Shown here one piece after another: positions 9,682 to 30,459 of a stretch of DNA of 64,000 nucleotides; the stretch's first letter is position 1; each line of letters starts with the position of its first letter. The translations under genes were made by a program, and so were the position numbers. The notes below the pieces were generated by a model. That model was not told the origin of the DNA and did no database searches. It saw only the letters and a program-made list of their open reading frames with translations. Source of the stretch: Candidatus Heimdallarchaeota archaeon. GTDB taxonomy: Archaea > Asgardarchaeota > Heimdallarchaeia > Hodarchaeales > Hodarchaeaceae. The stretch is from contig CP070695.1 in the NCBI GenBank assembly GCA_020353515.1, forward strand, positions 1,864,041-1,928,040, given 5' to 3'.

Positions 9682-12600
9682 ATGCAAATCTTAAAAAAGA
9701 ACCCATTGTTAATTCTAACTTTATTTATAATATTAGCTCCATTGGTAGTTGGAATACAATTTTTTGGAGATAATATGCCAATAACAATTATTGAATCGCT
9801 AAATGAAGATAATATAGAAACTATTCCCATATTGAATGAAAGAAACGACGATATAGAGTCAATCTATGAAAAAGAATCTAGTATTTATCTGAATAACGTC
9901 TTAGAACGCCTTAGATTAGGAGAAGAGCCAAGTACTTCAGAAAGTGTATTTCTCTCTTATTCTAATCGAATACCTGATCTACCAGAATGGGTAGAAATAC
10001 AAAGGTACTTTAAACTAATCCCCTTGATACAAGTAAGTACTACTCTTGAAAATATTCCCAATCTTACAGAAATTCGTCACGTTGACGCTGTTATCCCAGT
10101 CGGAAAAGGAGTATTAGCAAAATTATCTAGTTTTACGGAGGATTATAATCCTTACATTGGTGAATTCCCCCTTTTATTAAATGAAACTGTTTCATTGGTT
10201 GAAGCTGAAAATGATAATACAACTGGTTCTGGTGTTATAATCGCTATATTGAGCACCGGAATTGATGAGACCCATCCAATGTTGGATGATCAGGATGACG
10301 ATTGGTCGACAACTGATGATCTTAAGATTATTGATTCATATGATGCATGGGATGGAGGTATAACTGATGATCAAAATGGCCGAGGAACTGCTCTTGCCTC
10401 AATTGTTGCTGGAACAGGTGCCGTTGGTGGTAGATTAGAGACAGAATTATCCTTTACATATCCTTATCCTTATGAGACAGATCCAGAATATGAAACCCAA
10501 ATAGTAAATACGACCATTAATATTGGGACTCAGATGGGTCTTGCGCCTGAAGCTTCTCTTTTCGATGTGAAGATTACTAATGATGCTGGTGATGCATATG
10601 ACGAGGGTATAGCAATTGAAGGAATTGAATGGGCTGTTGACCATGGAGCAGATGTAATTTTGTTAGATGATCTACCTTCAGCAACTTCTGCAATTATTTC
10701 GGTGATTGAAGCAGCTACCTCTCGAGGAGCTCTGGTAGTCGTCCCAGCTGGAGACTTTGTCCCACCAGGAGGTTATGACGATGATAACATAGCACCCTAC
10801 TATTCAATAAACTCTCCTGCTTCTGCACCTACTGCATTAACCGTGGGAGCAACCACGGAAACTAATTCGTTATGGGTACAATCTGAACGAGGTCCAGTCC
10901 CCGTAACGGAACATTCAAAACCTGATGTCGCTGCTCCAGGAGTTTTTATGTTAGGAGCAAGCATTGATTATTCAACTAGTGAAGGATCAAACCCTGATGG
11001 TTGGCAAGGAGAGCCAGGTGACATTGATGATACTCTCTATTTTGATGTCTTTTCCAGTACAGCGATGGCTGCTGCAGTTACAGCTGGTGTCACTGCGCGC
11101 TTAATAGAGGCTTATCCTGGAGCTTCAGCAACAGCCATCAAAATAGCTTTAAGAAAAGGAGCGACTGATCTTGGATTTAACGAAATGGCTCAAGGTAAAG
11201 GAAAAATAAGTTTGTCAGAAGCCCTTGATATCTTAGAGGCAGCTCCTAAAGAAGCAAACAATTTAGTAGGGAATGTGTATAAAAAGGAATTCACGGTTCC
11301 AATGGTAAATTATACTGATTTTTCAGGGAAAAGGATCCTCATTGATGGTTCCTGGTCTACATCCCCTCTAGCTTTTCCAGGTGGAGGACCTTACGATTGG
11401 AGTCAGCAAACAAACGGTAATCTTAGCACATTAGGCGTTACCTCAAACTGGCAACATCCTTATGATGATACTGCGAACCAGTACACTTGGTATAATGTAA
11501 GTTATCAAGGTGCGTCACAAGTACGGATCACCCTCAATAATCTAACAGTGGCTACTGGGGATAACTTTACCATTTATCGATCTTCCACTCCAAATGGGCC
11601 TCTTACTAGTGTTTATGGTCCAACGAGTAGTAATTTTACTGGGAGTTTCACTGATACGACTACTGATAATTACTTCTACTTTAGATGGGGTAGTAATGGA
11701 GATGGATATACGACTGGTCAGAGTGTTTTTGGAATTTATGGCTTTGTTGATCTATGGTTCTATGCTGATACTACCCAACCACCCGCAGGGACTTTTGAAT
11801 TTGAAGAACTCGTTACTCAACTTATTGACCTCGGAGCTGTCGTTGAATATTGGTATGCCAATTCTGCAGATGCACCTCCTACCTCTATATTATTAGAATA
11901 CTATGATATTTACTTCCTTGGACAACCACTCGCAGTTGCGACCACAGGTATTCCTGGTGAATATTATCAATGGATGAGTGGAAATTTAACGAATTATCTG
12001 AATGCAGGTGGTCGAGTACTATTTATTGGAGACTATGAAAATCAATATTATAATGATGCGACAGAGGCTTTGGGGGTGACGTGGCACTATGGTGGTGGTG
12101 GAGGGCCAACAACTGATATTGTGAATCATGTTCTTACAACTTATCCATTTACAATTGAAGAACTTTTAATAGACGCTCCGTATGCCTATTTTACTGGTAC
12201 TGCTCCAACTCTGGTTCAAGAAGCGGGAAAAGCGACAATCAAGTATTATAACCAAAACAATGGAAAAGCTGTATTCGTTGCGGATGAGGATGTTTTCAAT
12301 GATGAAATGTGGGATAATCCATTCCCAACAAACCTTAACCCAAGCCGATATAATAATTCTCAATTAGCCATGAACATTTTCTATTGGCTGAGCGATATCA
12401 GTTATCAGTCTGGAGAACGAGATGATGGAGGTGAAGAGCATTTTGAACTCATTTCTTATGAATATCGCCCAATTATGACTGATGAAGACCTCTGGGAGGT
12501 TGAGATTGTTCTCCAAAATATTGGGAATTTCACCAGTCAAGCATGGGTAGCTTTTGGATTCGATTACACACCAACATCATACACATTAGGTTTCGGAGCG

Positions 12601-15435
12601 ATTGGTAACCCAGATGGAGTAATGGATACAGCTGGAGAAGATAATGCCAATGATACGTGGCACTTTTCTATTGGAGGAGATGGGGATATCAATTCATTAC
12701 AATCTAATACCACAATAGAATTCTTTTACAATATTTCAGAAAACTATCCAGTAAGTCAGATTGCAATGCCCTATATTGAGATATCTGCCTCAGGAATGAA
12801 TCGAGATACAGCGGAATGCCTTCTACTCTTAAATGGTTATCAAATTGGCCCAATATATGAAACAAACACATCTACTGGTGGAACTGGAGTTATGTATTAT
12901 CCTATTCACCCTATTAGCAGATTACAACAGTATAATAACACTGTAGAAATCACTGTTCCAGATTCTATCGATTTAACTTTGGAATCCTTCAGGATTGTAG
13001 GGTACAACTTCAGTAATTCTTTAGGCACTCAACATATTGCTACATCAAATATCGCTCCTAATCAAAACGCAGCCATAACATTTCAATATACTCCCCCTGA
13101 TCTAGAGGAACCTGCTTATTATGAACCTGAAATCATCTTCACACCTTATAATATGACTCATGCTCAATTCTCACCTGGATATGCATCTTCTCTCTTCAAA
13201 GAGTTGGCTTTAACCGTCGATTATGGACTCATTGATCCAGGCTATTACAACGAATTTGGCACACAAGTATACGCAATTCCTAAGACAACACGTCAAGGTG
13301 ATCTTCCACTCTTGTATGACATTACCCCAGGATCTCTTAGTTCCTCTTCGAGCACTAAGATTGCACAATTCCCAGGTGACATCAGAGTCGACGGATTAAC
13401 CGTGATGAGTAGCAGAATTGTTGATGATCCAAGTTTAAGGTTATCAGGAACTATAACTTCTGTAGCAGGACTTGGAAACTATTCAGAAGCCTCACTAGGG
13501 ATAAGTTCCTATGTGTTGGCCAATTTAGCACCAGAGCTATTCTTACTAAATGATACATGGGCTTCCACAGCTCAACTAGATATGAAATACCTTAACCATT
13601 CCTCCATTGGTCCTATCCTTCAAGTCGACATCCCTCAAACCCAGTCACCAACCACTCTTAGTGGCACTCTCTCTTTGATTTCAAATGGAACGTCGCTATA
13701 TCAAATTACGCTTCAAATAACTATTAGCAATCCTATATCTTCTTTCTTGCTTCTTGATTCTCTAGATATAACACAAGATCCTGGTGGATATCTTGAGCGA
13801 GACTATGATAAACTTTGGGATCAGCTATATGAGATGTGGCAAATAGCGGTTGAAGCGGGATATGATATAGATTCCCTCACTCAAACATGGTATCTGTATG
13901 GTCACCGAACTCATGATGACAGCGTGTCTGCCGATCCTTTCGAATTTTTAGATAAACATGTTTGTAGTGTTCCTCCAGAGGAAGATCTGCCATATGAGGG
14001 ACTTATTGGTGTTGATCTAGCTGACACATTCAATCCAGGGTATTTGGATGACTACTTTACCAGGGGTGGTAATCTAATTCAGCTCGGAATAGGAGGACCA
14101 GTACCAGCTAGCGGTGATCACTTGGGACCTAATTTTATTGCTGATATTGATTATTTTGACAGAGAAGAGGAGATGACAACTCTCGTAAGTGGAACTGATT
14201 CAATTAATCCTCTCATGGACACAGTCAATCAACTTTTCTACCTTGGTGGAGGTTACATGGTAATCGATCAGGAGAGTTACGATGATCAACTAACTTACGA
14301 TGTGATTACTGGTCAAAATTGGCTATTTAGCGGTCCCATTGTGGCACCTAATCGTGATATAGCTTTCATTTATCATGATGCTGTTTATCCTGATCGCTTT
14401 GGGTATGATCAAGGGCAATATACCAGTCTCGCACAAACCTATAAGGGATTAAAGGTTGTGGTTGGATCAGCTAGTATGACTCAAAGTTGGTTCCTTGAAC
14501 AGACTGATTATTGGGCTTATGGGTCAATGAAATACGCAGCAGATCAAAATATCATTGCAGAAGAGTTCAGTGTTAATTTAGGCAATAATAAGTTTGTTGA
14601 AAACATCTTTAGAGTCGGTGGAAATAAAGCCCCTACAATAGAGTCAATAAACATGTCAACACCTCATGTAGGACCTGGAGATTATGTAACTGTTCGAGTA
14701 AAGGTATCTGATGATCAAGAGAATCCCTCTGAGTTGACTGTTTTATGCCCAGAGAAGATAACTCCTGGAATGAACTACATAAATTGCTCCTATGATTCCA
14801 ATTCCAGCACGTTCATAGGGAGCTTTGCAGTTGTTGACACCTCCTTCATTGATTTTTGGAACATCTATGTTATTGATGATCTCTATAGGATCACAGAAGC
14901 TGTCGATGGGGTAAAAAGATTTCTAATCCCTGAAATGAACGTAAAACCTGTTGCTTGGATTCCCTTCAATGATGAAATGAACTATTATTCAATCATTGAT
15001 GTGGAAAAGGGTGAATTACTCTCTTTTGCGTTTTATTACGATGATTTCGAAGATGGAGACGCTATTATATGCAATATAAGTTTGGTTTATTATTTCAATG
15101 AAGAAGAAACAGAAATAATAAGTTCAGAGCTTTTTGCTGGATTGGGTCAAGGTATATTCTTAGTAGATACTACTACTTTAAGGGATGGAACTCATATAGT
15201 TTTTGCATTTGTCACAGACACAGACGGTGGTACAGCAGAATACCAATTGGCAGGATTTAACATCGGCAGAGGAACTCTCTATAAACCAAAACCAAAACCA
15301 GCAGGCATTGATCCAGTCCCAATTCTCATTGTAGGTGGTTCAACGTTAGGTCTCGCTGCAGCAGTCGGTGGTGGATGGTATTTCTTGTTACATAGACGAG
15401 GTATGGGTATCAGAGATCTTTTCCGACGAGATTAA
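9682..15435 (+). CDS. Large membrane-anchored S8 subtilase-like protein with substituted catalytic residues
   Basis: S8 scaffold motifs (GSGVIIAILSTGID, GLAPEASL, ALTVGA, KPDVAAPG), an N-terminal hydrophobic signal, and a C-terminal TM followed by a basic tail. Confidence 0.9.
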   Translation: MQILKKNPLLILTLFIILAPLVVGIQFFGDNMPITIIESLNEDNIETIPILNERNDDIESIYEKESSIYLNNVLERLRLGEEPSTSESVFLSYSNRIPDLPEWVEIQRYFKLIPLIQVSTTLENIPNLTEIRHVDAVIPVGKGVLAKLSSFTEDYNPYIGEFPLLLNETVSLVEAENDNTTGSGVIIAILSTGIDETHPMLDDQDDDWSTTDDLKIIDSYDAWDGGITDDQNGRGTALASIVAGTGAVGGRLETELSFTYPYPYETDPEYETQIVNTTINIGTQMGLAPEASLFDVKITNDAGDAYDEGIAIEGIEWAVDHGADVILLDDLPSATSAIISVIEAATSRGALVVVPAGDFVPPGGYDDDNIAPYYSINSPASAPTALTVGATTETNSLWVQSERGPVPVTEHSKPDVAAPGVFMLGASIDYSTSEGSNPDGWQGEPGDIDDTLYFDVFSSTAMAAAVTAGVTARLIEAYPGASATAIKIALRKGATDLGFNEMAQGKGKISLSEALDILEAAPKEANNLVGNVYKKEFTVPMVNYTDFSGKRILIDGSWSTSPLAFPGGGPYDWSQQTNGNLSTLGVTSNWQHPYDDTANQYTWYNVSYQGASQVRITLNNLTVATGDNFTIYRSSTPNGPLTSVYGPTSSNFTGSFTDTTTDNYFYFRWGSNGDGYTTGQSVFGIYGFVDLWFYADTTQPPAGTFEFEELVTQLIDLGAVVEYWYANSADAPPTSILLEYYDIYFLGQPLAVATTGIPGEYYQWMSGNLTNYLNAGGRVLFIGDYENQYYNDATEALGVTWHYGGGGGPTTDIVNHVLTTYPFTIEELLIDAPYAYFTGTAPTLVQEAGKATIKYYNQNNGKAVFVADEDVFNDEMWDNPFPTNLNPSRYNNSQLAMNIFYWLSDISYQSGERDDGGEEHFELISYEYRPIMTDEDLWEVEIVLQNIGNFTSQAWVAFGFDYTPTSYTLGFGAIGNPDGVMDTAGEDNANDTWHFSIGGDGDINSLQSNTTIEFFYNISENYPVSQIAMPYIEISASGMNRDTAECLLLLNGYQIGPIYETNTSTGGTGVMYYPIHPISRLQQYNNTVEITVPDSIDLTLESFRIVGYNFSNSLGTQHIATSNIAPNQNAAITFQYTPPDLEEPAYYEPEIIFTPYNMTHAQFSPGYASSLFKELALTVDYGLIDPGYYNEFGTQVYAIPKTTRQGDLPLLYDITPGSLSSSSSTKIAQFPGDIRVDGLTVMSSRIVDDPSLRLSGTITSVAGLGNYSEASLGISSYVLANLAPELFLLNDTWASTAQLDMKYLNHSSIGPILQVDIPQTQSPTTLSGTLSLISNGTSLYQITLQITISNPISSFLLLDSLDITQDPGGYLERDYDKLWDQLYEMWQIAVEAGYDIDSLTQTWYLYGHRTHDDSVSADPFEFLDKHVCSVPPEEDLPYEGLIGVDLADTFNPGYLDDYFTRGGNLIQLGIGGPVPASGDHLGPNFIADIDYFDREEEMTTLVSGTDSINPLMDTVNQLFYLGGGYMVIDQESYDDQLTYDVITGQNWLFSGPIVAPNRDIAFIYHDAVYPDRFGYDQGQYTSLAQTYKGLKVVVGSASMTQSWFLEQTDYWAYGSMKYAADQNIIAEEFSVNLGNNKFVENIFRVGGNKAPTIESINMSTPHVGPGDYVTVRVKVSDDQENPSELTVLCPEKITPGMNYINCSYDSNSSTFIGSFAVVDTSFIDFWNIYVIDDLYRITEAVDGVKRFLIPEMNVKPVAWIPFNDEMNYYSIIDVEKGELLSFAFYYDDFEDGDAIICNISLVYYFNEEETEIISSELFAGLGQGIFLVDTTTLRDGTHIVFAFVTDTDGGTAEYQLAGFNIGRGTLYKPKPKPAGIDPVPILIVGGSTLGLAAAVGGGWYFLLHRRGMGIRDLFRRD

Positions 15436-15458: not shown

Positions 15459-15691
15459 CATTTTAGAAAGTTATACATTCATGTCGGAGACATTCCCAAA
15501 GACAAAAAATGGAGTTAATCCGAATTATAACTTGTTTCTTGCCAAAAAAAGGATCTATTATGGGCTATGATTCTTTGATATTTCAGTTGAAAGCCTTATT
15601 ATATTGTGCTTAAATCTTAAATATCAGATTAATATTAGATAGATTCAGAATTAGGAGCTGAATTTAACAGTAAATATTGGAATTAATTCTT

Positions 15692-17107
15692 ATGAAACTA
15701 TACAATTCCTTAACCCGGAATAAAGAAGAATTTATCACTATTGAAGATAAAAAGGTTCGCTTTTACTCATGTGGCCAGACAGTTTATGAGGATGCTCATA
15801 TTGGTAATGCACGAACCTATTCTTACTGGGATACATTAGTTAGGTATCTCCGTTGGCGCGGATATGATGTTTTTTGGGTTCAAAACTTCACAGATGTGGG
15901 CCACCTGACAGATGATGCAGACAGCGGTGAAGATAAAATAATACGAACAGCCAAACGGAAATCTATCCAACCTATGGTTTTAGTGGAAACAAAAATACGG
16001 CAATTCTTCGAAGACATGGATGCTCTAAACATCCAAAGAGCGGATATTTATCCTCGTGCAACGGCAGAAATCCCTGAAATGATTGAATTCGTTAAAGATT
16101 TACTTGTAAAAGAATATGCATACGAGGTAAATGGCTCAATCTATTTTGATGTGACAAAATTTCCTTCTTATGGAGAACTTAGCCCATCATCATATTCTGA
16201 GGAATCAGCAGGTGCTCGTATTGCTGTTAATCCTGAGAAACGAGATCCTAGGGATTTTGCATTATGGATTCGAGCTCCTCCAGAACACCTTATGAAATGG
16301 CCATCCCCATGGGGTCTTGGTTATCCTGGTTGGCATCTTGAATGCAGTGTAATGTCTCAAAAATATTTGGGTACTACACTAGATATTCATGGGGGGGGAA
16401 TCGATCATCTCTATTTACATCATCCAAATGAAATTGCTCAATCTGAAGCACGCACAGGTGAAAAGTTTGTAAACTATTGGTTACATGCAGCATTTCTCAC
16501 TGTCGATGGTGAACGGATGGGAAAATCCAAAGGGAACTTCATCTTGGTTCGCGAGCTTCTTAACGAATTTGATCCAATGCTCATTAGGCTTTTTTTGATC
16601 AATTCCTATTATCGAAAAAGTGTAGATTTCAATCGAGATGCTCTTGTACAAACTCAGATTCTTCTCGATCGAATACGAACGACAATAGCTTCCATCGATC
16701 GGGCAACAGGCGAGAAAGAATCTGATTTAATCACAGCTATCACTGAGGTTGAGGCAGATTTTATCGCTGCAATGGATGATGACTTAAACACTGTTGGAGC
16801 ACTCCAAGCGATCATGCAGTTTGTCAAAAAAGTAAATGCTGCTCTTGACAATGAAAAGTCTCTCCTAGAAGAAGCTAAAAACAAGATTATAACATTTATT
16901 GGTATCTTAGGGATTTCTCTTCAAGATGAAGCCCAGCAGGGAACAATTCCTTTATCTGCTTTGGTGGACATGTTGGTAGGTTTGAGAGATAAATTACGAG
17001 AATCCAAGCAATATGAATTCTCTGATCAGATTAGAGCTGAGTTGTTAGAATTAGGTATTCAACTTGAAGACAAACCAGATGGAACCATTTGGAAATTAAA
17101 GAGATAA
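15692..17107 (+). CDS. cysS: Cysteine--tRNA ligase
   Basis: MKLYNSLT, CGQTVY, HIGN, PGWHLEC, DIHGGG and RMGKS (KMSKS equivalent). ATG 15692 is preferred over TTG 15677. Confidence 0.97.
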   Translation: MKLYNSLTRNKEEFITIEDKKVRFYSCGQTVYEDAHIGNARTYSYWDTLVRYLRWRGYDVFWVQNFTDVGHLTDDADSGEDKIIRTAKRKSIQPMVLVETKIRQFFEDMDALNIQRADIYPRATAEIPEMIEFVKDLLVKEYAYEVNGSIYFDVTKFPSYGELSPSSYSEESAGARIAVNPEKRDPRDFALWIRAPPEHLMKWPSPWGLGYPGWHLECSVMSQKYLGTTLDIHGGGIDHLYLHHPNEIAQSEARTGEKFVNYWLHAAFLTVDGERMGKSKGNFILVRELLNEFDPMLIRLFLINSYYRKSVDFNRDALVQTQILLDRIRTTIASIDRATGEKESDLITAITEVEADFIAAMDDDLNTVGALQAIMQFVKKVNAALDNEKSLLEEAKNKIITFIGILGISLQDEAQQGTIPLSALVDMLVGLRDKLRESKQYEFSDQIRAELLELGIQLEDKPDGTIWKLKR

Positions 17108-17136: not shown

Positions 17137-18339
17137 CTAATTAAACGCCTTTGAAATTCTCTCTAGAGATTCTTCTAAGATAGAAAGTGGACACGCAATA
17201 TTTATACGTTCAAACCCCTCTCCTCCTGCTCCAAATTTATAACCCGAATCCAATGCCAATTTCGCTTCCTCAAGTATCTTTTTTTCTAACTCCTTGGAAT
17301 CGAGTTCAAATGCTCGAAAATCTAGCCAAACTAGGTAGGTTCCTTCCGGTTCAATAACAGAGACAGAGGGAAGATTTTTGTTAATGAAAGATTTCAAGAA
17401 ATTCAGATTCCGCTCAAGAACTTGAATAAGAGAGCTTAACCATTCCTCTCCCTCGTCATACGCAACTTGTAAAGCTAATGCACCGAATGCATTAGGAATG
17501 GTGAGAGCAAGTGCTTCCATCTGAACTTTAAAATTTTCATGAAGTTTCTCATTAGGAATTATTACATTTGAATGTTGAAAACCTGCAAGATTAAACGTTT
17601 TACTTCCTGCGGTGCATGTGATAGACTGTTGTGCGAGTTCTTCAGAAATCGAAGCATAGACAATATGCTTGTGCTTTGGATATATTAGATCACAGTGAAT
17701 TTCATCTGAAATAACTAAGACATCATTCTCGAGACAAATTTCTCCCAATTTACTTAATTCTTCTTTGGACCAAACACGACCGATTGGATTATGAGGACTA
17801 CACAGTATCAAAGCCCTTGCACGTGGATCTTTGGCTTTTTCTTCAAGATCCTCATAATTCATTCGATAATAAGAATCATCTAGAATTAATTGGTTTGAAA
17901 GAACTTGACGACCATTGTTCTTTATAATTGAAGCAAAAGGATAGTAGACAGGATCTTGAATAATCACCTTATCTCCAGGATCGGTAAACCTCTGGATTAT
18001 GTATGTGCAGGCCTGAACAATACCAGGAGAAAAAACCAACCAATCCTCATGCAAATCCCAATTGTGACGACGTTTAAACCAATTTATCACAGAATTGTTG
18101 TATTTTGAAGGATCTGGTCCAGTATAACCAAATATCCCATGCTTTACTCTTGTAACAAGTGCATCAATAACTGGCTGAGGGGCACGAAAATCCATATCTG
18201 CGACCCATAGTGGTAATAGATCTTCCTTACCAAATATTTTAGTTAAATAGAAAGGGTCCCATTTAATGGATCCAGTATTTGAACGATCAATAACTTCATC
18301 AAAGATACTAAAATCTATTTTTGTCATTTTCAATACCAA
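17137..18339 (-). CDS. PatB/MalY family PLP-dependent C-S lyase (cystathionine beta-lyase-like)
   Basis: LPLWVADMDF, CSPHNPIGRVW, SDEIHCD and SKTFNLAG motifs. The start may be ATG 18327. Confidence 0.92.
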   Translation of the reverse strand: MVLKMTKIDFSIFDEVIDRSNTGSIKWDPFYLTKIFGKEDLLPLWVADMDFRAPQPVIDALVTRVKHGIFGYTGPDPSKYNNSVINWFKRRHNWDLHEDWLVFSPGIVQACTYIIQRFTDPGDKVIIQDPVYYPFASIIKNNGRQVLSNQLILDDSYYRMNYEDLEEKAKDPRARALILCSPHNPIGRVWSKEELSKLGEICLENDVLVISDEIHCDLIYPKHKHIVYASISEELAQQSITCTAGSKTFNLAGFQHSNVIIPNEKLHENFKVQMEALALTIPNAFGALALQVAYDEGEEWLSSLIQVLERNLNFLKSFINKNLPSVSVIEPEGTYLVWLDFRAFELDSKELEKKILEEAKLALDSGYKFGAGGEGFERINIACPLSILEESLERISKAFN

Positions 18340-18377
18340 CTTTCATTCATTAGAGATTAAGGAAATAAGATAAGTAT

Positions 18378-20168
18378 TCAAAGGTCCAAAGATGCAAGTT
18401 TGTCTTTCGTGGGAATTCCCTCTCGATCCCATCCTCTCAATTCATAGTATTTTGCTTTGGCTTTCTCAAAATCCTCTAATTTAATTCTTTGACCCTTTGG
18501 ATCCCCTTTGGGTGCTTCATCTTGATAAAAACGGGGTGGTAAAATATCATTGAAAGCAGTCATTCCTTCTCGTGTATTAAATTGGCGGATAATATTCCAT
18601 ACTCGTTCACCAGCCATCAGGTAACTCTCTGGGGTGTATGAAAAACCAGTTGCAGTGTTAAGTATTTCAACCATCTCATCAATATCAAATGGTAAGAAAT
18701 CACATAGAACTAACGAGAAACATGCGGCTCTCTCATCTTGTGATTCTTTAACAAATTTTGGTACTCCTTCCATACTAAATCGAGTTAATGTACCAGATAG
18801 TTCCGCTCCAGGTGTCCAACAACGTTGATGACAGCCTCCACGATCAGAGGTAGCATAAGCTAATGCCATCCCAAAGGATCCTCGGGGTTCAACACCTGCA
18901 AGTTCTAAATTTTTCACCTGAATTGCAAAATCAGTACTACCATGACCTATTATTTTTGCAGCAGAAAATGACCCCCTAGCAAACAGTTCCCCAACTCCTT
19001 TTCGTTCTGCAATAAGACGTAGCATCTCATGTTGGGCCTCTACAGTGCCAAATTTTAAGCTTTGAATATCCTTCTGATCAAAAATTCCCTTTTCACTACA
19101 TTCCATAGCAAACGCAATTGTCCCACCGGCAGTAATTGTGTCCATTCCTAAGTCATCACAAATCTGATTGGATTTAGCTATTGCAGCGAGATCGTCGACC
19201 CCACAACTTGCCCCTAAGAGTGCACTTGTTTCATATTCAGGACCATCAACTTCTAATCCTGCATATTTGCCTTCAGTAAAGCGGGTTGTTTTTCCACAAG
19301 CAATCAGACAGCCATAACAAGCAGTATGACCAATAACGAACTCATCACGCATCCTTTCCCCAGAAATGGCCTCTGCACCCTCAAATACCCCTGCTTGAAA
19401 GTTCCTTGTTGGTAGAAAACCTGCTTCGTTCGCCATTTTAACCCACATGACTGTACCAATCTCATGACGGCGTTTAACTCCAGGATTCTCACGTACCTTT
19501 TTCCTAAATTGCCTGGTTAATCCTCTGAATTTTTCAGGATTAGCGGCCTCAATCTTTTGATTTCCTCCCACAACAATTGCTTTGAGATTTTTTGATCCCA
19601 TTACAGCTCCTGCTCCTCCTCTACCAGCCATATGGGTTCGATCAGTCATAATATTAGCAAAAGTTACTAAATTTTCTCCTGCAGGGCCAATAGAACAGAC
19701 TTCAGAACCTTCATATCGTTTCTTCAATATTTCTTCTGTTTGATATGTTCCTTTACCCCAGAGATCGTCCGCAGAATGAATTTCAACCTGTTCAGAGGAA
19801 ATTTCCAAATAACAAGGAGAAAGCGCTTTCCCGTGAAGAGAGACGAAATCATAACCTGCTCGTTTCAAACGGTGACCAAATTTTCCCCCGATTTGACTAT
19901 CAAGATAGATTCCTGTATGAGGAGATTTTGTAACTATACACCATCGGCCAGAGGTCTGGACAGAGGTACCTGATAGAGGGCCAGTCATGAATAAGAGGAT
20001 ATTTTCAGGACCTAATGGTTCAACCCCAGGTTTCAGCGCATCAAAAAGAATTTTCGCCCCGAGACCTTTCCCTCCTATAAATTGTTCTGCAAGGTGCATA
20101 TCAAGAGAATGTTCTGATATTTTTCCTATTGAGAGGTCAACATCCAAAGATTTACCCATATATCCCAT
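18378..20168 (-). CDS. aor: Tungsten aldehyde:ferredoxin oxidoreductase family protein
   Basis: GGKGLG, KSPHTG, IGPAGEN, GRGGAGAVMGSKNLKA, CYGCLIAC and EYET motifs. Confidence 0.95.
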   Translation of the reverse strand: MGYMGKSLDVDLSIGKISEHSLDMHLAEQFIGGKGLGAKILFDALKPGVEPLGPENILLFMTGPLSGTSVQTSGRWCIVTKSPHTGIYLDSQIGGKFGHRLKRAGYDFVSLHGKALSPCYLEISSEQVEIHSADDLWGKGTYQTEEILKKRYEGSEVCSIGPAGENLVTFANIMTDRTHMAGRGGAGAVMGSKNLKAIVVGGNQKIEAANPEKFRGLTRQFRKKVRENPGVKRRHEIGTVMWVKMANEAGFLPTRNFQAGVFEGAEAISGERMRDEFVIGHTACYGCLIACGKTTRFTEGKYAGLEVDGPEYETSALLGASCGVDDLAAIAKSNQICDDLGMDTITAGGTIAFAMECSEKGIFDQKDIQSLKFGTVEAQHEMLRLIAERKGVGELFARGSFSAAKIIGHGSTDFAIQVKNLELAGVEPRGSFGMALAYATSDRGGCHQRCWTPGAELSGTLTRFSMEGVPKFVKESQDERAACFSLVLCDFLPFDIDEMVEILNTATGFSYTPESYLMAGERVWNIIRQFNTREGMTAFNDILPPRFYQDEAPKGDPKGQRIKLEDFEKAKAKYYELRGWDREGIPTKDKLASLDL

Positions 20169-20194
20169 ATCTTATCCCAGCATTGACTTACTAT

Positions 20195-21232
20195 CTATCT
20201 GGAAACCTTTCGATGAATATCCAAGATATCAGTTAATAAAGCATAACCTGTAGCCTCACGACCTGCACCAGGTCCGACTATTGTCACATCACCGAGATAT
20301 TTTGTAGTGTAAGTTAAGGCATTTATTGGGCCACTTACTGCAGCGAGAGGATGATCTAAGGGGATTTTCTCTGGCCTCACATATGCATCAACAAATCCAT
20401 CTTCTTTTAATTCAGCTCCCGCTATAAGTTTCCAGCGTTTTCCTTCCTTATTAGCTTCTTTAATATCCTGATAAGTGATCTTAGTAATTCCTTGACAGGG
20501 GACTTGGTCTTTAGTGATGTTCCCACCCATTACAACATTGGTTAGAATCACGATTTTTCCCAAAGCATCATAGCCTTCAACATCAGCAGTCGGATCAGCT
20601 TCAGCATAACCAAGGTCTTGTGCTTGTTTTAATGCTACCTCATAAGTCAAGCCTTTCTCCATCTCGGTTAAGATGTAATTAGTAGTCCCATTAACAATCC
20701 CAGCAATTTTAGTTATTTTCGAGCTTGCTAGATTATTTACTCCTAAATTAAGAGCTGGAGTCCCACTTAAAACAGTCCCCTCAAATCTTATCTCAACACC
20801 ATTTGTTTTTGCCATTGAAAGGAGTTCTCGCGCAGCCAAGGCAATTGGCCCTTTATTAGTCATAACTATATGTTTGTGACATCCAATAGCAGTCTTAATA
20901 TGCGAAATTGCTGGTTCTCCTGTGTTAATATCTGTCCAAGACACTTCTACAATAAGGTTTGCATTTGTTTCTGTAATTGTTTGAATACTATCCCATCCCT
21001 TAATCCCCTCTGGGTAATCCTCAATCTTGCCTGTAGATTTTACCAAATCTAAAAGCTTTTGAACATCTAATCCATTTTCTGCATAAACTGAACCTTTCAT
21101 TTTGTCAGCTATAGCAACAACTTCAAATTCAAAACCAAACTGGTTTTTTAAATCGGTTTTCTGTTCCAAGAGTATTTCTGCAAGACCCTGGCCGACAACT
21201 CCAAAACCGATAAATGCTATTCTTGTTATCAC
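20195..21232 (-). CDS. hom: Homoserine dehydrogenase (no ACT domain)
   Basis: GFGVVG, TNKGP, GIVNGTTNYIL, GYAEADPTADVEGYDA and GPGAG motifs. Confidence 0.95.
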   Translation of the reverse strand: MITRIAFIGFGVVGQGLAEILLEQKTDLKNQFGFEFEVVAIADKMKGSVYAENGLDVQKLLDLVKSTGKIEDYPEGIKGWDSIQTITETNANLIVEVSWTDINTGEPAISHIKTAIGCHKHIVMTNKGPIALAARELLSMAKTNGVEIRFEGTVLSGTPALNLGVNNLASSKITKIAGIVNGTTNYILTEMEKGLTYEVALKQAQDLGYAEADPTADVEGYDALGKIVILTNVVMGGNITKDQVPCQGITKITYQDIKEANKEGKRWKLIAGAELKEDGFVDAYVRPEKIPLDHPLAAVSGPINALTYTTKYLGDVTIVGPGAGREATGYALLTDILDIHRKVSR

Positions 21233-21246
21233 TTAATCCACCTTTT

Positions 21247-22416
21247 TTAGAATGAATCCTTAATGCTTTCTATTGCCTCATTAATATTATCAACAGACGT
21301 TGCATACGAAAATCTAAGATATCCTTCTCCCACATCTCCAAAAACTGTTCCTGGAAGACAAGCTACCCCATTCTCCTCTAATAATTTATCTGCCAATTCT
21401 TTTGAAGTTTTTCCAGTATCTTTAATATTAGGAAAAACATAAAATGCACCCTGGGGCCGCAAACAGGAAAATCCTGAAATGCTATTCAAGCCATCAACGA
21501 TAGCATCTCGTCTTTTGCGAAAGGCCTTCATATTCCTCTTCAGCTCCTCTTGAGGTTCTTTCATGGTTAATGCTGCGGCACCTGCTTTCTGGATGAAAGC
21601 ATTTACACAAGAGACTGTCATTGAAATTAAAAGCCCCATTCGATCAATGATTCTCTCTGGTCCTATTACATAGCCCAATCTCCATCCAGTCATTGAATAA
21701 GCTTTAGAGAAGCCGTCTAAAATGACTGTTCTTTCCTTACATTCATCATGTTCAGAACAAGAGTAAAAAGTCTCATCATAGGTCATTTTAGAATAAATTT
21801 CGTCAGAAAGAAGGTAAACATTGTTCTCTTCTGCGAGTTCTGCAATGCGAATGATTTCTTCCTTCTTCATAACTGAACCTGTTGGATTTTGTGGGCTGTT
21901 TAAAACGATGACTTTTGTTTTAGGCGAAATTTTTTCTTCTACATCAGCGGGGTTTAATCGAAATTCATTTTCTTCTTTAAGGGGAAGCGAAATATTTCCT
22001 GTATTTAGATAATGGACGACAGCCCTGTAAGTAGGAAATCCAGGATTAGGGTGAATTACTTCTTCTTTGAGGGGATTATCACTTGCTGCTCGTATCATAT
22101 AAAAAATTGCAGAGTTTCCTCCTGGTACAACTAAGATCTGATTTAATAAAGGACAAAATCCTCTTGTTTTTTCAATCTCGTCTTGAATGGCTTCTTTCAA
22201 TTCAAGAATCCCTTGCGCTGAAACATATCCAGTGAAATTCTCATCCAGCGCTTTTTTGGCTACGTCTTTAACACATTCAGGAGTACAAAAATCTGGTTGA
22301 CCTATTTCAAAGTGTAAAACTCGCTTACCTTGACGTTCAAGGGTTTGTGCTCGTGATAGAACATCAAAAATCCCTGCTCCAGTCCTTAAGCCCTCAAAAT
22401 CGAGCATATTACTCAC
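21247..22416 (-). CDS. Class I/II PLP-dependent aminotransferase (aspartate aminotransferase-like)
   Basis: IGQPDF, NSPQNPTG, SDEIY and DGFSKAYSMTGWRLGY motifs. Confidence 0.93.
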   Translation of the reverse strand: MSNMLDFEGLRTGAGIFDVLSRAQTLERQGKRVLHFEIGQPDFCTPECVKDVAKKALDENFTGYVSAQGILELKEAIQDEIEKTRGFCPLLNQILVVPGGNSAIFYMIRAASDNPLKEEVIHPNPGFPTYRAVVHYLNTGNISLPLKEENEFRLNPADVEEKISPKTKVIVLNSPQNPTGSVMKKEEIIRIAELAEENNVYLLSDEIYSKMTYDETFYSCSEHDECKERTVILDGFSKAYSMTGWRLGYVIGPERIIDRMGLLISMTVSCVNAFIQKAGAAALTMKEPQEELKRNMKAFRKRRDAIVDGLNSISGFSCLRPQGAFYVFPNIKDTGKTSKELADKLLEENGVACLPGTVFGDVGEGYLRFSYATSVDNINEAIESIKDSF

Positions 22417-23700
22417 TCAACGATGATGAAGGTTTCGTGCTGCAATAAATGGTAAACCATTCTCTGTAAGAATTCGAGCAGTAGTATTAATGGCATCCTG
22501 TCTATCAAGATAGTTCGTACGTAAAGCATCCCAATCATTAGCGCTTATAATATCTTCTTTAGAACGGAAATAGTCTAGAATATCTGACGGATGATCACGG
22601 GTTCTTTCAACTTCGACGTTGCCGCCTTCATGTTTTGCACTTATGTTTTTAACACGAGCTGCTAGTTCTACTAACTCCTCACGTCGATCATATGGTTGTC
22701 GTACGATACTTTTCCAAGTCTCAATCACATGATGTTCTAAGCGAACTACATCTTCAAAACCAAACTCGTTTCTAATATAAGCACTCAACTCAATCGTCTG
22801 ATTATTCACAGAATTTGCTAGATTAAATCCAATTAATGGACTACTACCATTTTCTCGAGCAAATAACTTCGCAGCAAGAAGAGTCCAAAAACAAGAATAA
22901 GGATTATCATTCCCAACAAATACAGAAATCTTGAATTCGTTGTTGATTCCTAATTTATGTAGAAAATAGCCTAAAAGAATGGTACCTAAATTAATATTGA
23001 GAACTTGCTGAACACCATAATTTGTATAATAATAGAGATATTCATCTACCCATTTAAGAGCAAAATCATTAGGTTGACCGACTCCACCAAAATAACCTGT
23101 GATAGTCCCTGGACCCCCTAAATGAACATTGACAGGATTTCCATCGGGGCCTGGAGCTGTCCCCTTAGTGTCCAAAGTTTCGACATAAGTTGCACCAATG
23201 ATCTGCATAGCTGCAGTCATTGCTAACAAATCCCCATCTTCTTCTTGTTCTTTCATTCTCCTAACTCGGATGATCCGTCCAGGTAATAACTCCTGATTGG
23301 CAATAGCACGTTTAGCTCCTTCAATCAGGAAAGGAAAATATTGACATGCTGAAAGTTCCAAAGTTACAGCAAAAGCATCATCAAACTTAAATTTATTAAC
23401 ATCGCCCCCTAGTACTTTTCGATGATAATCCTCAATTGGAATGAATGCTTGTTGATCCCGTTGAGTGGTTAACCAATCTAAGTCTTTAACATAATCTGGT
23501 TTCTTCTTCTCTAGTTTATATAAGATAGTCTCTAAGTCCCTAGCTTCCTTAGCTTTAAGATTAATGTTATCAATCCCACCATACTTATCTATAACTTCTA
23601 AAAGATCGTTAATTAATGGATTATCCTCATTCAGCAAAAAATCATTTATTTCTTTTAGATTTTGGTCTGGTATTCGTAACTTTGCTCGTAAATTATTCAT
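22417..23700 (-). CDS. Hypothetical soluble enzyme-like protein, first gene of the operon
   Basis: Long ORF; ATG 23700 follows a GGAGG SD. It is rich in motif-like segments (ETLDTKGT, HLGG, GYFGG, EHH, KHEGG). Family not recognised. Confidence 0.85.
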   Translation of the reverse strand: MNNLRAKLRIPDQNLKEINDFLLNEDNPLINDLLEVIDKYGGIDNINLKAKEARDLETILYKLEKKKPDYVKDLDWLTTQRDQQAFIPIEDYHRKVLGGDVNKFKFDDAFAVTLELSACQYFPFLIEGAKRAIANQELLPGRIIRVRRMKEQEEDGDLLAMTAAMQIIGATYVETLDTKGTAPGPDGNPVNVHLGGPGTITGYFGGVGQPNDFALKWVDEYLYYYTNYGVQQVLNINLGTILLGYFLHKLGINNEFKISVFVGNDNPYSCFWTLLAAKLFARENGSSPLIGFNLANSVNNQTIELSAYIRNEFGFEDVVRLEHHVIETWKSIVRQPYDRREELVELAARVKNISAKHEGGNVEVERTRDHPSDILDYFRSKEDIISANDWDALRTNYLDRQDAINTTARILTENGLPFIAARNLHHR

Positions 23701-24125
23701 AAAATAGGCCTCCAAAGCGTAATTCAAATTTCCCCTAATAATTTTAACATTTTTCAAAGTTTTTGTGCTTCTATTTAGTAGAGAGAATACTTACGCTATG
23801 ATGTCAAAGGTTGTCTCAAACAACCTTGGTTCTTTTTTTTTCTTGATTGAACCTTAAGCTAATTTCAAAAACCACTTAATGGGATTTTATCCCTTGAATG
23901 GTAATATTATTCAGTATGGAAATCATCCTGTATAAACTTCTAATTTTCAGAATAACAGGATGATATTACCCTTTTGCTAATTAATTTTGATTCTAAGTTC
24001 AGATAAGTGCAGAAAGCAATAAATACTTAAAACTTAGTAAAACATAACTACTTTGAATTTGATTTCACATATTAGTTTAACAGTCTAGAGAGAAGACTTC
24101 TCCATGATAATAGGTGGTAATAAAT

Positions 24126-25238
24126 ATGAGTTTGCGTAATTATATCATTCGGCGTGTAATTTTTAGCATTCCTTTAATTTTAGGAATTTCTATCATCCTC
24201 TTCACACTTATGTGGCTTAGTCCAATGGATTATGTTGATGTCCTAAAGCAGGGGGATCCCACTTTGACACAGGAAGAAATGGAAAACATGCGCCATCAGC
24301 TAGGACTAGATCGCCCTCCCCAAGAACAATATTTGTTCTGGTTATTTGGAAAAAACTCTGAAGACAGCGATTATTTAACAGAGTTTTCAGATTATGTTTT
24401 ATTGGGATTGGGTAGAGGAATTCAAAGCACCTTCAAAATAGATTTAGATATTGGGCCGAGTGATTTTACCCCAGGCTTCGTTTTTGGTAATTTAGGACGT
24501 TCTTATTCAGGTTCCACTATTAACTCCTTGATTGGAGCATTAGCCTGGCAAACCATGAAACTCCAATTAGCCTCATTAATTATGAGTCTAATGCTAGGTA
24601 TACCTCTAGGGATTTTTTCCGCAAGACGGCCTTACTCAAAAACAGACAATGTTTCTACAACATTTGCCTTATTTGGTGTCTCAATGCCAGTCTTTTGGAC
24701 AGGAATCATGTGCATTTTACTCTTCTCGGACTGGAAAATATTCTTTGGAATCAAATTTCCCACAATTGGTGCATATAGTTATGACTTGACGGGAAATGAA
24801 ACCTTCCTTGAGCTGATATGGGATGAACTATTTCATATGATTATCCCAACTGTCGTCTTAGGGCTAAGTGGAACCGCTTTGATTCTCAGGTTGACGAGAT
24901 CAAGCATGTTGGAAGTTTTACGGCAGGATTATATTCTGACAGCCCGATCGAAAGGTCTCTCAGAGAGATTAGTAATTTACAAACATGCTTTAAGTAACGC
25001 ACTACTACCTGTAGTCACTGTTGTTGGATTAAGTATAGGTTTCTTATTGGCTGGTGCTGCATTAACTGAAACGGTTTTTTCGTGGCCGGGTCTGGGAAAG
25101 GAAGCTGTTTACCGAGTAAATGTCAGAGATTACAACTTTATGATGGGGATCAATATGTTGATCGCAGTCATGGTGATTCTCGCAAACTTATTGACAGATA
25201 TCACGTATGCATTTCTAGATCCAAGAATACGCTACTAG
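24126..25238 (+). CDS. oppB: Oligopeptide ABC transporter permease
   Basis: LGLDRP, SMPVFW, RSSMLEVLRQDYILTARSKGL and ETVFSWPG motifs. Confidence 0.93.
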   Translation: MSLRNYIIRRVIFSIPLILGISIILFTLMWLSPMDYVDVLKQGDPTLTQEEMENMRHQLGLDRPPQEQYLFWLFGKNSEDSDYLTEFSDYVLLGLGRGIQSTFKIDLDIGPSDFTPGFVFGNLGRSYSGSTINSLIGALAWQTMKLQLASLIMSLMLGIPLGIFSARRPYSKTDNVSTTFALFGVSMPVFWTGIMCILLFSDWKIFFGIKFPTIGAYSYDLTGNETFLELIWDELFHMIIPTVVLGLSGTALILRLTRSSMLEVLRQDYILTARSKGLSERLVIYKHALSNALLPVVTVVGLSIGFLLAGAALTETVFSWPGLGKEAVYRVNVRDYNFMMGINMLIAVMVILANLLTDITYAFLDPRIRY

Positions 25239-25270
25239 AGTTATGAAACGCTTGAGGTGAAATTATAATT

Positions 25271-26968
25271 ATGGCTGAACATAGACTTGATGAAGCAAAA
25301 TTAGAAGAACTTGAAAAGGAGAAGCAAAAGAGAAGACGCGTTGGCCGATTAATGGTTTTTTGGAGAAGATTCAGACGTCATAGGATGGGTGTTTTTGGAT
25401 TATCAATCATTGTTTTCATAACTCTATTAGCTATCTTTGCGGATTTTCTCGCTGGAACTAATGGCCTTATCCCATATGGGCCCTCAGACGAACGTCTCGA
25501 AGCTCAATATGTTGCCCCATTTGGATTTGAACTGAATAAAGATAGAGATGCATCTTTAGCTGCTCAGGGTAAGGAAAAAACATTGGGAGCAGTTTATTAT
25601 GATAGAGAAATTAATTTTACCAATGGGATATCTCAACAAAACCTAACACATTATCAACAACTAAGTCAAATTGATAGTATTGAATCAGCTAATGGTAACA
25701 ACGAACTTTGGACGAACTCTGAAGGGGATTTTGACCATGATTCTGGTCAGATTACTCTTACCGACAATAGCTTTAGTGGAACTGCTCTTGTTGATTATCG
25801 TGTGGCAGGAAAATGTGCACTAAGGATTACTCCCTACAAGAGTGATATTTCTCAGATTAAAATGTGGATGAAGGTCGCTACTGACTATGCAGAACTCTCT
25901 TGGCCCGAGCCTGTTGATTTATATATTTTCGAGGACGGAGTAGATTTCGATACTGGGGAGGCAATAGCCACAACAAGTATCGATGGTCATAAAATCGTTT
26001 CTGGTCCTGGTGCTATAAACCCTACTGGTGTCACTTTTAATTTTGGTTATAAAGCTGTAGGAGTAACCCCCCAACGGAATTATTGGCTCGTTCTTGACAC
26101 AAATCTCATTAGGATGGAGTCACCAAGCGTAGATCTCCGTTTATTCATGGATTCAGGCAGCGATCCATTGGATCCTCTTAACTTAATGGGAAGGGGAAAG
26201 AACTGGAATAATTATGAAAAATGGGAAGGTACTACAATACCAGAGGAAGGAGAGTTACCTCGTATGAATGCCTATTTTGGTACAAATAAATTCCACCTAC
26301 TTGGTACAGATTCCTTAGGTAGAGACATACTCTCAGCTACTATCCATGGTGCTAGAACCTCACTTATTGTAGCTTTTGTTGCAATATCTATCCGAATCGT
26401 TATTGGTCTAGCTTTAGGTTCGATTGCAGGTTATTATGGTGGGAAAATTGATAATGCTATCATGAGACTAACTGATGTTTTCCTAGCAATTCCCTTTTTC
26501 TTTCTTATTCTTATTGCAATTACTATTTGGGAACAAGTAAGCTTAATAGTGCTTTCAATTACCCTTGGGTTGTTTGGTTGGTCACAAACTGCTCGAATTG
26601 TACGTGCTGAATTTCTCCACTTGCGAGAAATGGAGTATACCGATGCTGCTAAATCCCTAGGGGTATCTGATAGATCTATAATTTTCAAACATCTTTTACC
26701 CAATGCAATGGCCCCTGTTATCGTGACCGCATCATTAGGAGTTGCTACAGTAATATTAATTGAAGCAGGGCTCTCATTCCTTGGTTTTGGTGACCCATTA
26801 GCAATTTCTTGGGGAACAGCTATTCAATGGGGGATAGCTGGGCAGTCATTGAGGTTTGCTCCTTGGGTAGCCACAATCCCAGGGCTTGCAATATTCGTTG
26901 CAGTTGTTGGTTTTAATCTACTAGGAGATGCCTTAAGAGATGCACTCGATCCTAGGTTGAAAAATTAA
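25271..26968 (+). CDS. oppC: Oligopeptide ABC transporter permease with a large extracellular insertion
   Basis: [21 protein letters not shown] and [13 protein letters not shown] motifs; about 250 extra residues after TM1. Confidence 0.93.
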
Positions 26969-26983
26969 TCAAGAGGGTACATA

Positions 26984-27976
26984 ATGAGTACAACATCTAC
27001 AGATGGGACCATCCTTGAAATGAAAGGATTAAAGACACAATTCTTCACTGAAGACGGAGTCGTAAAAGCTGTTGACGGTGTAGACCTTAAAATAAAAAGG
27101 AAAGAGGTTTTAGGGCTTGTGGGAGAATCAGGTTGTGGGAAGACGATGACTTCGCTCTCAATACTACGCCTGATTCCTGATCCTCCAGGTAAAATCGTTG
27201 AAGGAGAAGTTTTCTTTAATGGTAAGGATCTCCTAAAATTAACTGAAGACGAAATTCGTTCAATTCGTGGTAATGAAATCTCAATGATTTTCCAAGACCC
27301 TATGACTTCACTTAACCCAGTTTTTACAGTAGAGAATCAGATTCTTGAGAATATTAAATTACACCAGAACCTAGACGATAAGGAAGCATTAGAATCTGGA
27401 ATCCAGATGTTAGACTTGGTAGGAATTCCTGAAGCTTCAAAACGAATACATGATTACCCACATCTCTTTAGCGGAGGCATGAGACAACGAGTAATGATAG
27501 CAATGGCTTTATCATGCCAGCCTGATCTATTAATTGCTGATGAACCTACAACCGCTTTAGACGTTACTATTCAAGCCCAGGTTTTAGAATTAATGAAAAA
27601 TCTTCAAGAGGAACTTAATATGGCTATTCTTTATATTACACATAATCTGGGTGTTATTGCAGAGATTTCTGATAATGTCGCAGTTATGTACGCAGGCAAC
27701 ATTGTCGAGTACGCTGCTGTTGAACCACTATTTGGAAGTCCGAGTCATCCCTATACACAAGCCTTGTTAGGTTCAATACCACGAATGGATAAGAAATTAG
27801 ATCGTCTAAGTGTTATTAAAGGAACAGTACCAAACTTAATAACCCCGCCAACTGGTTGTAGATTCCATCCCCGTTGTCCTTACGCGACTGAAGTATGTAA
27901 GGAACAAAAACCTCCTTATATTGATGTTGAACCAAATCATAAAGTCTATTGCCATTATGCAGGACAATTAGAGTGA
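26984..27976 (+). CDS. oppD: Oligopeptide ABC transporter ATP-binding protein
   Basis: [33 protein letters not shown] and a C-terminal Cys-rich HPY domain. Confidence 0.95.
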
Positions 27977-27987
27977 GGTAATATAAA

Positions 27988-28974
27988 TTGGCAACTAATG
28001 GACAAGCAATTATTGAAGTGAACAATTTATACAAATTCTTTCCTGTGAAGGAAGGAATCATTCGACAGACTGTAAAAGGGAATATACATGCTGTAGATAA
28101 TATTTCTTTTAAAGTTTTCAAAGGAGAGACAATGGGTTTAGTTGGAGAAAGTGGTTGTGGGAAAACAACTACTGCTAGAATGCTATTAAGGCTTGATGAA
28201 CCGACTGATGGAGAAATTTGGATCAATGGGATAGAAATCTCTAAAATCAAGAAAAGGGATATGCACCTTTTTCGTAAATCGATACAAATGGTATTCCAAG
28301 ACCCCTACTCTTCCCTAAATCCTCGAATGACTGTTTATGATATCATATCTGAAGGGATAAAGCTCTTTAAACTAACCAGAAGTAAGACTGAGACTGAAGA
28401 AAGAGTATTGGAATTAATGGATTTAGTAGGATTAGCTCCTTTTCACATTTATCGATATCCTCATGAATTTTCTGGAGGACAAAGACAAAGAATTGGGATT
28501 GCACGCTCCCTCTCCGTTAGTCCTGATATAATTGTGGCTGATGAACCTGTTTCAGCTCTTGACGTTTCAATACGTGCTCAAATATTAAATCTCCTTGATG
28601 ATCTCCAAAATGAACTGGGTCTAACATATATTATTGTTGCCCATGACCTCTCAGTAATAAGACATGTATCTGATCGGGTTGCAGTAATGTACGTTGGTAA
28701 GCTTGTTGAAGTTGCAGAAACCAACGAATTATACGGACAGCCAATGCATCCTTATACTGAAGCACTTATGTCCGCTGTACCAATTCCAGACCCCAGTGTT
28801 CGGGACAAACGGAAACGAATAATTTTACATGGAGACGCTGCCACCCCATTTAATCCTAAACCAGGCTGTCGATTTAAAGAAAGATGTGCATATGCAAAGA
28901 AAAAGTGTGAGGAAGATCCTCCTTTAGAAGAAAAAACACCCGGTCATTTTGCTGCATGTTGGTTCCCCAAGTAA
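27988..28974 (+). CDS. oppF: Oligopeptide ABC transporter ATP-binding protein
   Basis: [28 protein letters not shown] and DEPVSALD motifs. Confidence 0.95.
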   Translation: MATNGQAIIEVNNLYKFFPVKEGIIRQTVKGNIHAVDNISFKVFKGETMGLVGESGCGKTTTARMLLRLDEPTDGEIWINGIEISKIKKRDMHLFRKSIQMVFQDPYSSLNPRMTVYDIISEGIKLFKLTRSKTETEERVLELMDLVGLAPFHIYRYPHEFSGGQRQRIGIARSLSVSPDIIVADEPVSALDVSIRAQILNLLDDLQNELGLTYIIVAHDLSVIRHVSDRVAVMYVGKLVEVAETNELYGQPMHPYTEALMSAVPIPDPSVRDKRKRIILHGDAATPFNPKPGCRFKERCAYAKKKCEEDPPLEEKTPGHFAACWFPK

Positions 28975-29021
28975 TTTGTTGTTCTAAAAATAAAGGTTGA
29001 ATGAAGACACTGTAACTGTCC

Positions 29022-29492: not shown

Positions 29493-29648
29493 CAAAAATA
29501 TGAAATTTTTAATTTTTATTAACAAAATTAATTAATTACAAATTTTTAACACATGAGTAAAAAGAGTAAATATTTCACCCTCGAACCAAAACCTACCTCA
29601 TTTCAACTTCAGTTTTCGATATATTTAAGTGGGGGAAGTTAGAATAAG

Positions 29649-30452: not shown

Positions 30453-30459
30453 TATTGAT

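Follow-up and report, generated by a model that had tools for sequence, protein, structure and literature searches.

The 64,000-nucleotide stretch of the Candidatus Heimdallarchaeota archaeon contig CP070695.1 analysed here (the window) carries at 17137-23700 five minus-strand open reading frames that encode, in transcription order, an unnamed protein (U), an aminotransferase (AT), a homoserine dehydrogenase (Hom), an aldehyde:ferredoxin oxidoreductase (AOR) and a PatB/MalY-family lyase (PatB). This operon is a real, conserved and undescribed variant pathway around an unnamed enzyme family. We lean, if only by a little, towards reading its four-gene core as an oxidative amino-acid breakdown in which a compound X would become 4-hydroxy-2-oxobutanoate (HOB), then homoserine, aspartate semialdehyde (ASA) and aspartate. 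The gene content and order, the co-occurrence, the folds and the missing pathways described below are observations, around which we infer the chemistry, every reaction of the route included.

The host genome (G000; other G and L numbers denote compared genomes and loci) is a single 4.94-Mb contig, 96% complete and Hodarchaeales-like. An earlier note on this DNA had described five co-oriented genes with gaps of 0, 14, 26 and 38 nt, and the gaps computed here agree. Because PatB homologues are 396-399 aa long, the real PatB start is probably ATG 18327, which would make the last gap, between AOR and PatB, 50 nt. Similarly, U likely starts at ATG 23700 and not at TTG 23757, since its homologues measure 426-441 aa at 100% coverage and a TGGAGG-like element precedes the ATG in many relatives. 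Motif inspection found the catalytic and cofactor motifs of AT, Hom, AOR and PatB intact.

Which of these genes belong together? Among 18 same-genus loci, AT follows U in every one, 14 include Hom and 12 include AOR; the missing Hom and AOR genes correspond to contig ends, save in one 70%-complete genome with fragmentary U and AT. In a second Asgard family the U locus includes AT in 6/6 cases and Hom and AOR in 5/6 each, and in a third the operon order is kept in the one locus available (1/1). Hom-AOR-U linkage also occurs on two bacterial contigs and one further archaeal contig; the recurrent linkage of hom, aor and an unknown gene that the earlier note had pointed to is thus conserved. U, AT and Hom are jointly absent from three same-family genomes, two of which are single-contig. 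PatB, which scores above the TIGR04350 cut-off (479 vs 340), is present in 6/18 same-genus loci and in no locus of the other families, and a divergent oligopeptide importer adjoins the U operon in 2-3 of the 18. The earlier note had counted PatB as the fifth operon gene and set the importer beside the operon; because both are present in few loci, the conserved unit is the four genes U-AT-Hom-AOR.

The operon AOR combines the AFOR_N and AFOR_C domains with four Fe-S cysteines (CxxCxxxC plus a distal Cys) and pterin motifs, and its best solved relatives are 9mqx and 1aor. In a phylogenetic tree the operon AORs group as one clade (support 99/99) whose sister is the set of bacterial Hom-linked AORs (100/98); the nine paralogues of the host genome fall elsewhere. 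We propose that the enzyme oxidises ASA to aspartate.

This genome was searched for the conventional partners of Hom. Its three PF00696 matches are PyrH, a carbamate kinase and an isopentenyl-phosphate-kinase-like fusion, none of them an aspartate kinase (LysC), and Asd (PF02774) has no match; the absence of lysC and asd that had been noticed in the window extends to the whole genome. Elsewhere, Asd was detected in 1/10 other same-family genomes (a weak match) and 0/10 in family f3, and across 80 Asgard genomes those with an operon Hom almost uniformly lack it. ThrB and MetX gave only weak matches of 24-33 bits in the host genome (for MetX, 24-29 bits over about 60 residues, with a model that exceeded its cut-off in no control genome), and neither MetA, ASA sulfurtransferase, DapA, AroA' nor AroB' was found there. 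Homoserine and ASA are without a known biosynthetic source or sink in this genome. A need for ASA in making aromatic amino acids was considered and rejected here: AroA' and AroB' are missing from the genome, and AroB' occurs in 1/17 operon-Hom genomes.

Hom itself scores above the PRK06270 cut-off (428 vs 373), is the sole copy in the genome and has the catalytic motifs NKGP and EADP..D..G.D..GK. In its clade the second Rossmann strand is followed by an Asp, which three outgroup Homs do not have; this residue is a general marker of NAD use. Two related, U-negative genomes, G022 and G131, have a Hom of the same clade (66-69% identity) adjoining an NAD-type aldehyde dehydrogenase (ALDH) in the AOR's stead, a pair that is a probable stand-alone module for homoserine oxidation. 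Non-phosphorylating aldehyde dehydrogenases work oxidatively. Oxidation of homoserine to aspartate by Hom plus ALDH has been reconstituted in canavanine catabolism (PMC9533460). We consider it quite likely that flux through the operon is oxidative, because in these two genomes an NAD-type ALDH stands next to this Hom clade where the operon has AOR and because homoserine lacks a known source or sink. The earlier proposal of a catabolic run from homoserine through ASA to aspartate, with reduced ferredoxin as a product, gains support.

AT matches PF00155 (class I/II aminotransferases), has an intact pyridoxal phosphate (PLP)-Lys motif and reaches the cut-off of no NCBIfam model; among solved structures, aromatic and aspartate aminotransferases come nearest to it. 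An orthologue is present in 18/18 U-operon genomes, in 1/28 other U-positive genomes (53% identity, unlinked) and in neither Hom-ALDH genome. Because it is nearly confined to genomes with U and this Hom, we place AT between the keto acid of U and homoserine and propose it as an HOB/homoserine transaminase, for which aspartate could be the amino donor. For the same reason its earlier assignment to an aspartate-to-oxaloacetate step after AOR is probably wrong.

U belongs to a large, highly conserved family: at least 8000 homologues were found, the closest named ones from Hodarchaeota and related Asgard metagenome-assembled genomes, and 174/301 Asgard genomes have U, usually in one copy. It has no match in Pfam down to E 0.1, and none in NCBIfam, PDB sequences (single-sequence and profile searches) or Atlas features. 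Its predicted structure (pLDDT 91) is a TIM barrel with an extra N-terminal helical region of ~110 residues. Comparison with known structures returned generic TIM-barrel matches only (Z 11-12), Mk0906 of the U32 family (Z 11.4, rmsd 3.0 over 184 residues) being tied with CutC, BKACE and other unrelated barrels. For a class II aldolase or DAHP synthase fold, the best Foldseek match has E 6e-4, TM 0.33 and ~9-12% identity; Atlas structure clusters of 303-316 aa reach TM 0.73-0.77 to U (by target), the best being a U32-named cluster. Invariant across 167 homologues are E115, S117, R142, K257, S259, E322, H324, K356, H357 and E358; no Cys is, and the two of U itself are unconserved. The U32 model PF01136 does not match U.

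A second protein of 312 aa, V, has the motifs ExS, FK[IV]S and KxE in common with U (profile match probability 49, E 2e-4) and a weak PF01136 match (22.3 vs cut-off 22.4). It occurs in 8/80 Asgard genomes, all U-negative, and adjoins a gene fusing a DapA-like aldolase to Fae in 5/8; V is probably a functional substitute for U in other Asgards. In two Bacillota loci, however, V lies beside U or PanB, with U and V together. Two further relatives were seen. A 411-aa protein at L197:1551-2786, 25% identical to U (profile probability 96) and without Pfam match, represents by sequence a third branch, lying farther out in the family. The other, a U homologue of 385 aa (50% identity; L177:8001-9158), comes from a 41-kb contig whose name gives it as a category 3 VirSorter prediction; its neighbours are small hypothetical genes and replication-factor-like ones.

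What does U keep company with in other genomes? The operon Hom is present in 17 of 46 sampled Asgard genomes with U, and one more is cut by a contig end; the aldolase-Fae fusion is present in 26, and in 2 a plain DapA-like gene neighbours U. None (0/46) has both the operon Hom and the fusion. Family f11 genomes (L215-L220) carry two tandem fusion genes, unlinked to U. Outside the Asgards, a PanB gene is found no more than 2.5 kb from U in 56/86 loci, six of which also have folD, and a survey of bacterial U neighbours found no enrichment apart from PanB. Three of five U-PanB genomes have extra full-length PanB copies and a fourth a PanB fragment; in the host genome PanB sits among CoA-biosynthesis-like genes, unlinked to U. 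On plasmid CP087967.1 of Polaromonas, an aerobe (L186:3970-20670), U lies beside DapA-like, Ldh-family, iron-containing alcohol dehydrogenase and ALDH genes and is divergent from a sigma-54 activator; FAD oxidoreductase and TRAP genes are present and several genes are apparently frameshifted. This cluster may be a hydroxy-acid twin of the Asgard route. Importers, amidohydrolases and sigma-54 activators give several bacterial U loci a catabolic look.

The metabolite that fits all of these partners, and hence the intermediate of the route, is probably HOB, because it splits to pyruvate and a one-carbon unit, transaminates to homoserine and reduces to 2,4-dihydroxybutyrate. PanB is said, in work by Bouzon and colleagues from 2017, to move the hydroxymethyl group of HOB to tetrahydrofolate. 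The chemistry of an HOB aldolase and an HOB transaminase is documented for the synthetic homoserine cycle, in a study that terms HOB a non-native metabolite (PMC8879981).

How would the route run? U would convert a gamma-substituted 2-oxobutanoate (X) to HOB, the C4 leaving group being lost by enolisation and water then being added; a barrel with Lys, Glu and His at its strand ends would suit such enolisation and hydration chemistry. AT would then aminate HOB to homoserine, Hom would oxidise homoserine to ASA with NAD(P)+, and AOR would oxidise ASA to aspartate with ferredoxin, for a yield of NAD(P)H and reduced ferredoxin. In other lineages, PanB paralogues or aldolase-Fae fusions would instead split the U product to pyruvate and a carrier-bound one-carbon unit. 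As for X, we tentatively suggest, with rather more doubt than belief, the keto acid of methionine or homocysteine, because these would be the commonest such substrates for a peptide fermenter; methanethiol or sulfide would leave, and a single AT could both produce the keto acid and aminate HOB. Hints of sulfur metabolism near U are (i) in L192, a genuine methionine gamma-lyase gene immediately upstream of U-PanB, (ii) a related Cys/Met lyase downstream of U in L186, (iii) a homocysteine methyltransferase-family gene at L191 and (iv) PatB in six U operons. They make the earlier idea of feeding from Met/Cys-family compounds plausible; sulfur genes are found near U in few loci, however, without enrichment, and to this extent the idea is weakly supported. 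The wider claim, that U is a new enzyme family releasing methanethiol or sulfide from these keto acids and that HOB is a natural hub of sulfur amino-acid catabolism, is doubtful.

Several observations weigh on the other side, the scarcity of sulfur genes near U among them. A complementary pattern of U and methionine gamma-lyase-like genes was sought and not found, no genome exceeding the gamma-lyase cut-off. The Asgard genomes are related, and the mutual exclusion of Hom and fusion, like the AT pattern, rests on few independent lineages. The fold matches of U are generic and name no reaction. The Hom nucleotide motif is GFGVVG (GxGxxG), not the GxGxxN/A of the oxidation-only class (AnHSD); G022 and G131 lack U and AT, so that direction is shown for the Hom clade and not for the operon itself; and AORs are broad in specificity and reversible. 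Finally, a divergent U (39% identity, gut metagenomes) lies at L178:329-5817, and also in L181, among genes for an IlvD/EDD dehydratase and DhaK/DhaL, and the L178 cluster further holds a metallo-beta-lactamase-fold (lactonase) protein, IclR and a branched-chain-type ABC importer. This linkage suggests sugar-acid catabolism in part of the family, where other substrates are possible.

Could the same enzymes run in reverse? AOR would then reduce aspartate to ASA with ferredoxin, Hom would make homoserine and AT would make HOB, from which U would form a needed product, for example the homocysteine or methionine keto acid by thiol addition, with PanB and aldolase-Fae as alternative suppliers of HOB. 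The complementary distribution of Hom and aldolase-Fae fits this equally well. Also in its favour are the lack of LysC and Asd, the MetE-like and homocysteine methyltransferase-like genes of the host genome and the general knowledge that acids can be reduced by an AOR working with a dehydrogenase, the way acetogens form ethanol. We nonetheless judge reverse flux unlikely: in G022 and G131 an NAD-type ALDH takes the place of AOR next to this Hom clade, such an enzyme recurs in the Polaromonas cluster, several bacterial U loci look catabolic, and the aromatic-amino-acid version fails in this genome. Nor do we favour the ATP-independent bypass of kinase and Asd raised in the earlier note, no known consumer of homoserine or ASA having been found in the genome.

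Alternatively, the carbon skeleton may differ. X could be a keto acid derived from a tetronate, a branched analogue resembling ketopantoate or hydroxyvaline, or a molecule that sheds a different group (amine, sulfonate or sulfonium); Hom and AOR would then take homoserine or an analogue of it as substrate. The native substrate of PanB is branched, the divergent U keeps company with IlvD and DhaKL, threonine-degradation-like genes flank U in L047, and the joint presence of U and V in two Bacillota loci suggests distinct substrates or steps. This reading is improbable given that Hom exceeds an equivalog cut-off with its motifs intact and that no Asgard U locus has sugar-acid genes. It is also quite improbable that homoserine is made directly from Met/Cys-family compounds by U or PatB and that AT deaminates the final aspartate. 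The nearest solved relatives of AT, and a known PLP gamma-lyase that gives homoserine directly (PMC9533460), would suit such a wiring; U, however, has no PLP-family signature and elsewhere partners 2-oxo-acid enzymes, most operons lack PatB, and AT was not found in the two Hom-ALDH genomes, which would likewise have to dispose of aspartate. A chance cluster of unrelated peptide-fermentation genes, to which the ten AOR-family genes and several aminotransferases of the genome and the variation of PatB and importer across loci might point, is highly improbable and largely refuted by synteny and co-occurrence: the order is kept in three Asgard families, Hom-AOR-U linkage recurs on two bacterial contigs and a further archaeal one, the AOR clade is dedicated, and U, AT and Hom are jointly missing from three same-family genomes.

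Table 1. Positions of the operon genes in the window and of related genes in compared loci.
Feature	Location	Strand	Remarks
U	22417..23700	-	427 aa; TIM-barrel protein, unnamed family
AT, class I PLP aminotransferase	21247..22416	-	PF00155
Hom, homoserine dehydrogenase without ACT domain	20195..21232	-	PRK06270
AOR, tungsten-family aldehyde:ferredoxin oxidoreductase	18378..20168	-	PF02730 (AFOR_N) + PF01314 (AFOR_C)
PatB/MalY-family C-S lyase	17137..18339	-	TIGR04350; accessory fifth gene
Hom + NAD-type aldehyde dehydrogenase	L198:4773-7272		U-negative genome
Hom + NAD-type aldehyde dehydrogenase	L199:1-1451		U-negative genome
V	L209:6421-7359		~312 aa; weakly U32-like
V	L210:5625-6593		~312 aa; weakly U32-like
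V	L211:10026-11015		~312 aa; weakly U32-like
V	L212:6340-7287		~312 aa; weakly U32-like
V	L213:9929-10876		~312 aa; weakly U32-like
V	L189:5956-6894		~312 aa; weakly U32-like
V	L082:2483-3436		~312 aa; weakly U32-like

Around the operon, a perfect 8-bp inverted repeat, unique in the genome, lies upstream of U at 23807-23827; it was rejected as an operator, not being conserved in relatives. Scans for sigma-70 promoters and terminators gave chance-level results with models not suited to archaea. A cysS gene (15677-17107) converges on the operon, an adjacency kept in 8/18 same-genus loci, and a second copy, 67% identical, is found at G000 C1:4748726-4750138. The window further holds two oligopeptide-type ABC systems (24114-35000 and 41792-49115), the first including an OppC with a long insert (565 aa), and a subtilisin-like secreted protein of 1917 aa (9682-15435). 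The kinase-like fusion mentioned above (G000 C1:3146316-3148037; L003:3317-5038) joins an isopentenyl-phosphate-kinase-like domain to a metallo-beta-lactamase/RNase Z-like domain in 573 aa.

A literature search found nothing on Hom with AOR in Asgards, on this operon, on an AOR in such a role or on U. What is known is that a Hom plus aldehyde-oxidation module has bacterial precedent and that HOB chemistry has been worked out in engineering. The proposed route would explain why several Asgard lineages retain Hom without LysC or Asd, and it cautions those who model the metabolism of the archaea most closely related to eukaryotes against taking Hom as a sign that threonine or methionine is made. 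It also gives testable substrates for a single-copy family that is present in more than half of the searched Asgards and in many anaerobic bacteria and has no Pfam entry. If HOB is confirmed, natural dedicated HOB transaminases, aldolases and hydroxymethyltransferases exist, for steps at which synthetic one-carbon pathways now borrow promiscuous enzymes. Were the AOR specific for ASA, its family would gain a new class of substrate. An HOB hub would span Asgard archaea, Chloroflexota, Bacillota and other groups, and its exits would be interchangeable, leading to aspartate (AT/Hom/AOR), to pyruvate and a methylene-carrier (PanB or aldolase-Fae) and to malate (the hydroxy-acid twin).

How does the operon compare with known systems? 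U has the (beta/alpha)8 fold in common with the U32 family (TrhP, RlhA, UbiU/V, Mk0906), CutC, class II aldolases, BKACE and DAHP synthase. It departs from U32 in lacking both a PF01136 match and the invariant Cys of an Fe-S cluster, in whose place it has an invariant Lys/Glu/His/Ser set, and from all these barrels in its N-terminal helical region. The operon AOR has both Pfam domains, the CxxCxxxC plus distal Cys and the pterin motifs in common with Pyrococcus furiosus AOR (1aor) and related tungsten oxidoreductases and differs in belonging to a clade of its own that is linked to Hom in both archaea and bacteria. With the canonical aspartate pathway (LysC, Asd, Hom, ThrB, ThrC, MetA/MetX) the operon shares a genuine Hom; LysC, Asd, ThrB, MetA and MetX were not found, and Hom sits instead with AOR, AT and U. 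The canavanine module of Pseudomonas canavaninivorans, composed of a homoserine dehydrogenase, an aldehyde dehydrogenase and an aspartate ammonia-lyase (PMC9533460), likewise leads from homoserine through ASA to aspartate. Its homoserine comes from a PLP gamma-lyase, whereas in the Asgard route we propose transamination of HOB; its aldehyde step uses an aldehyde dehydrogenase and not a ferredoxin-linked tungsten-family AOR; and the Asgard Hom has GxGxxG where the oxidation-only Hom class has a different motif. Lastly, the synthetic homoserine cycle interconverts HOB and homoserine by transamination and HOB and pyruvate plus a one-carbon unit, matching the partners of U in other genomes. That cycle is engineered, assimilatory and devoid of U, whereas the Asgard route would be natural, served by dedicated genes and probably oxidative.

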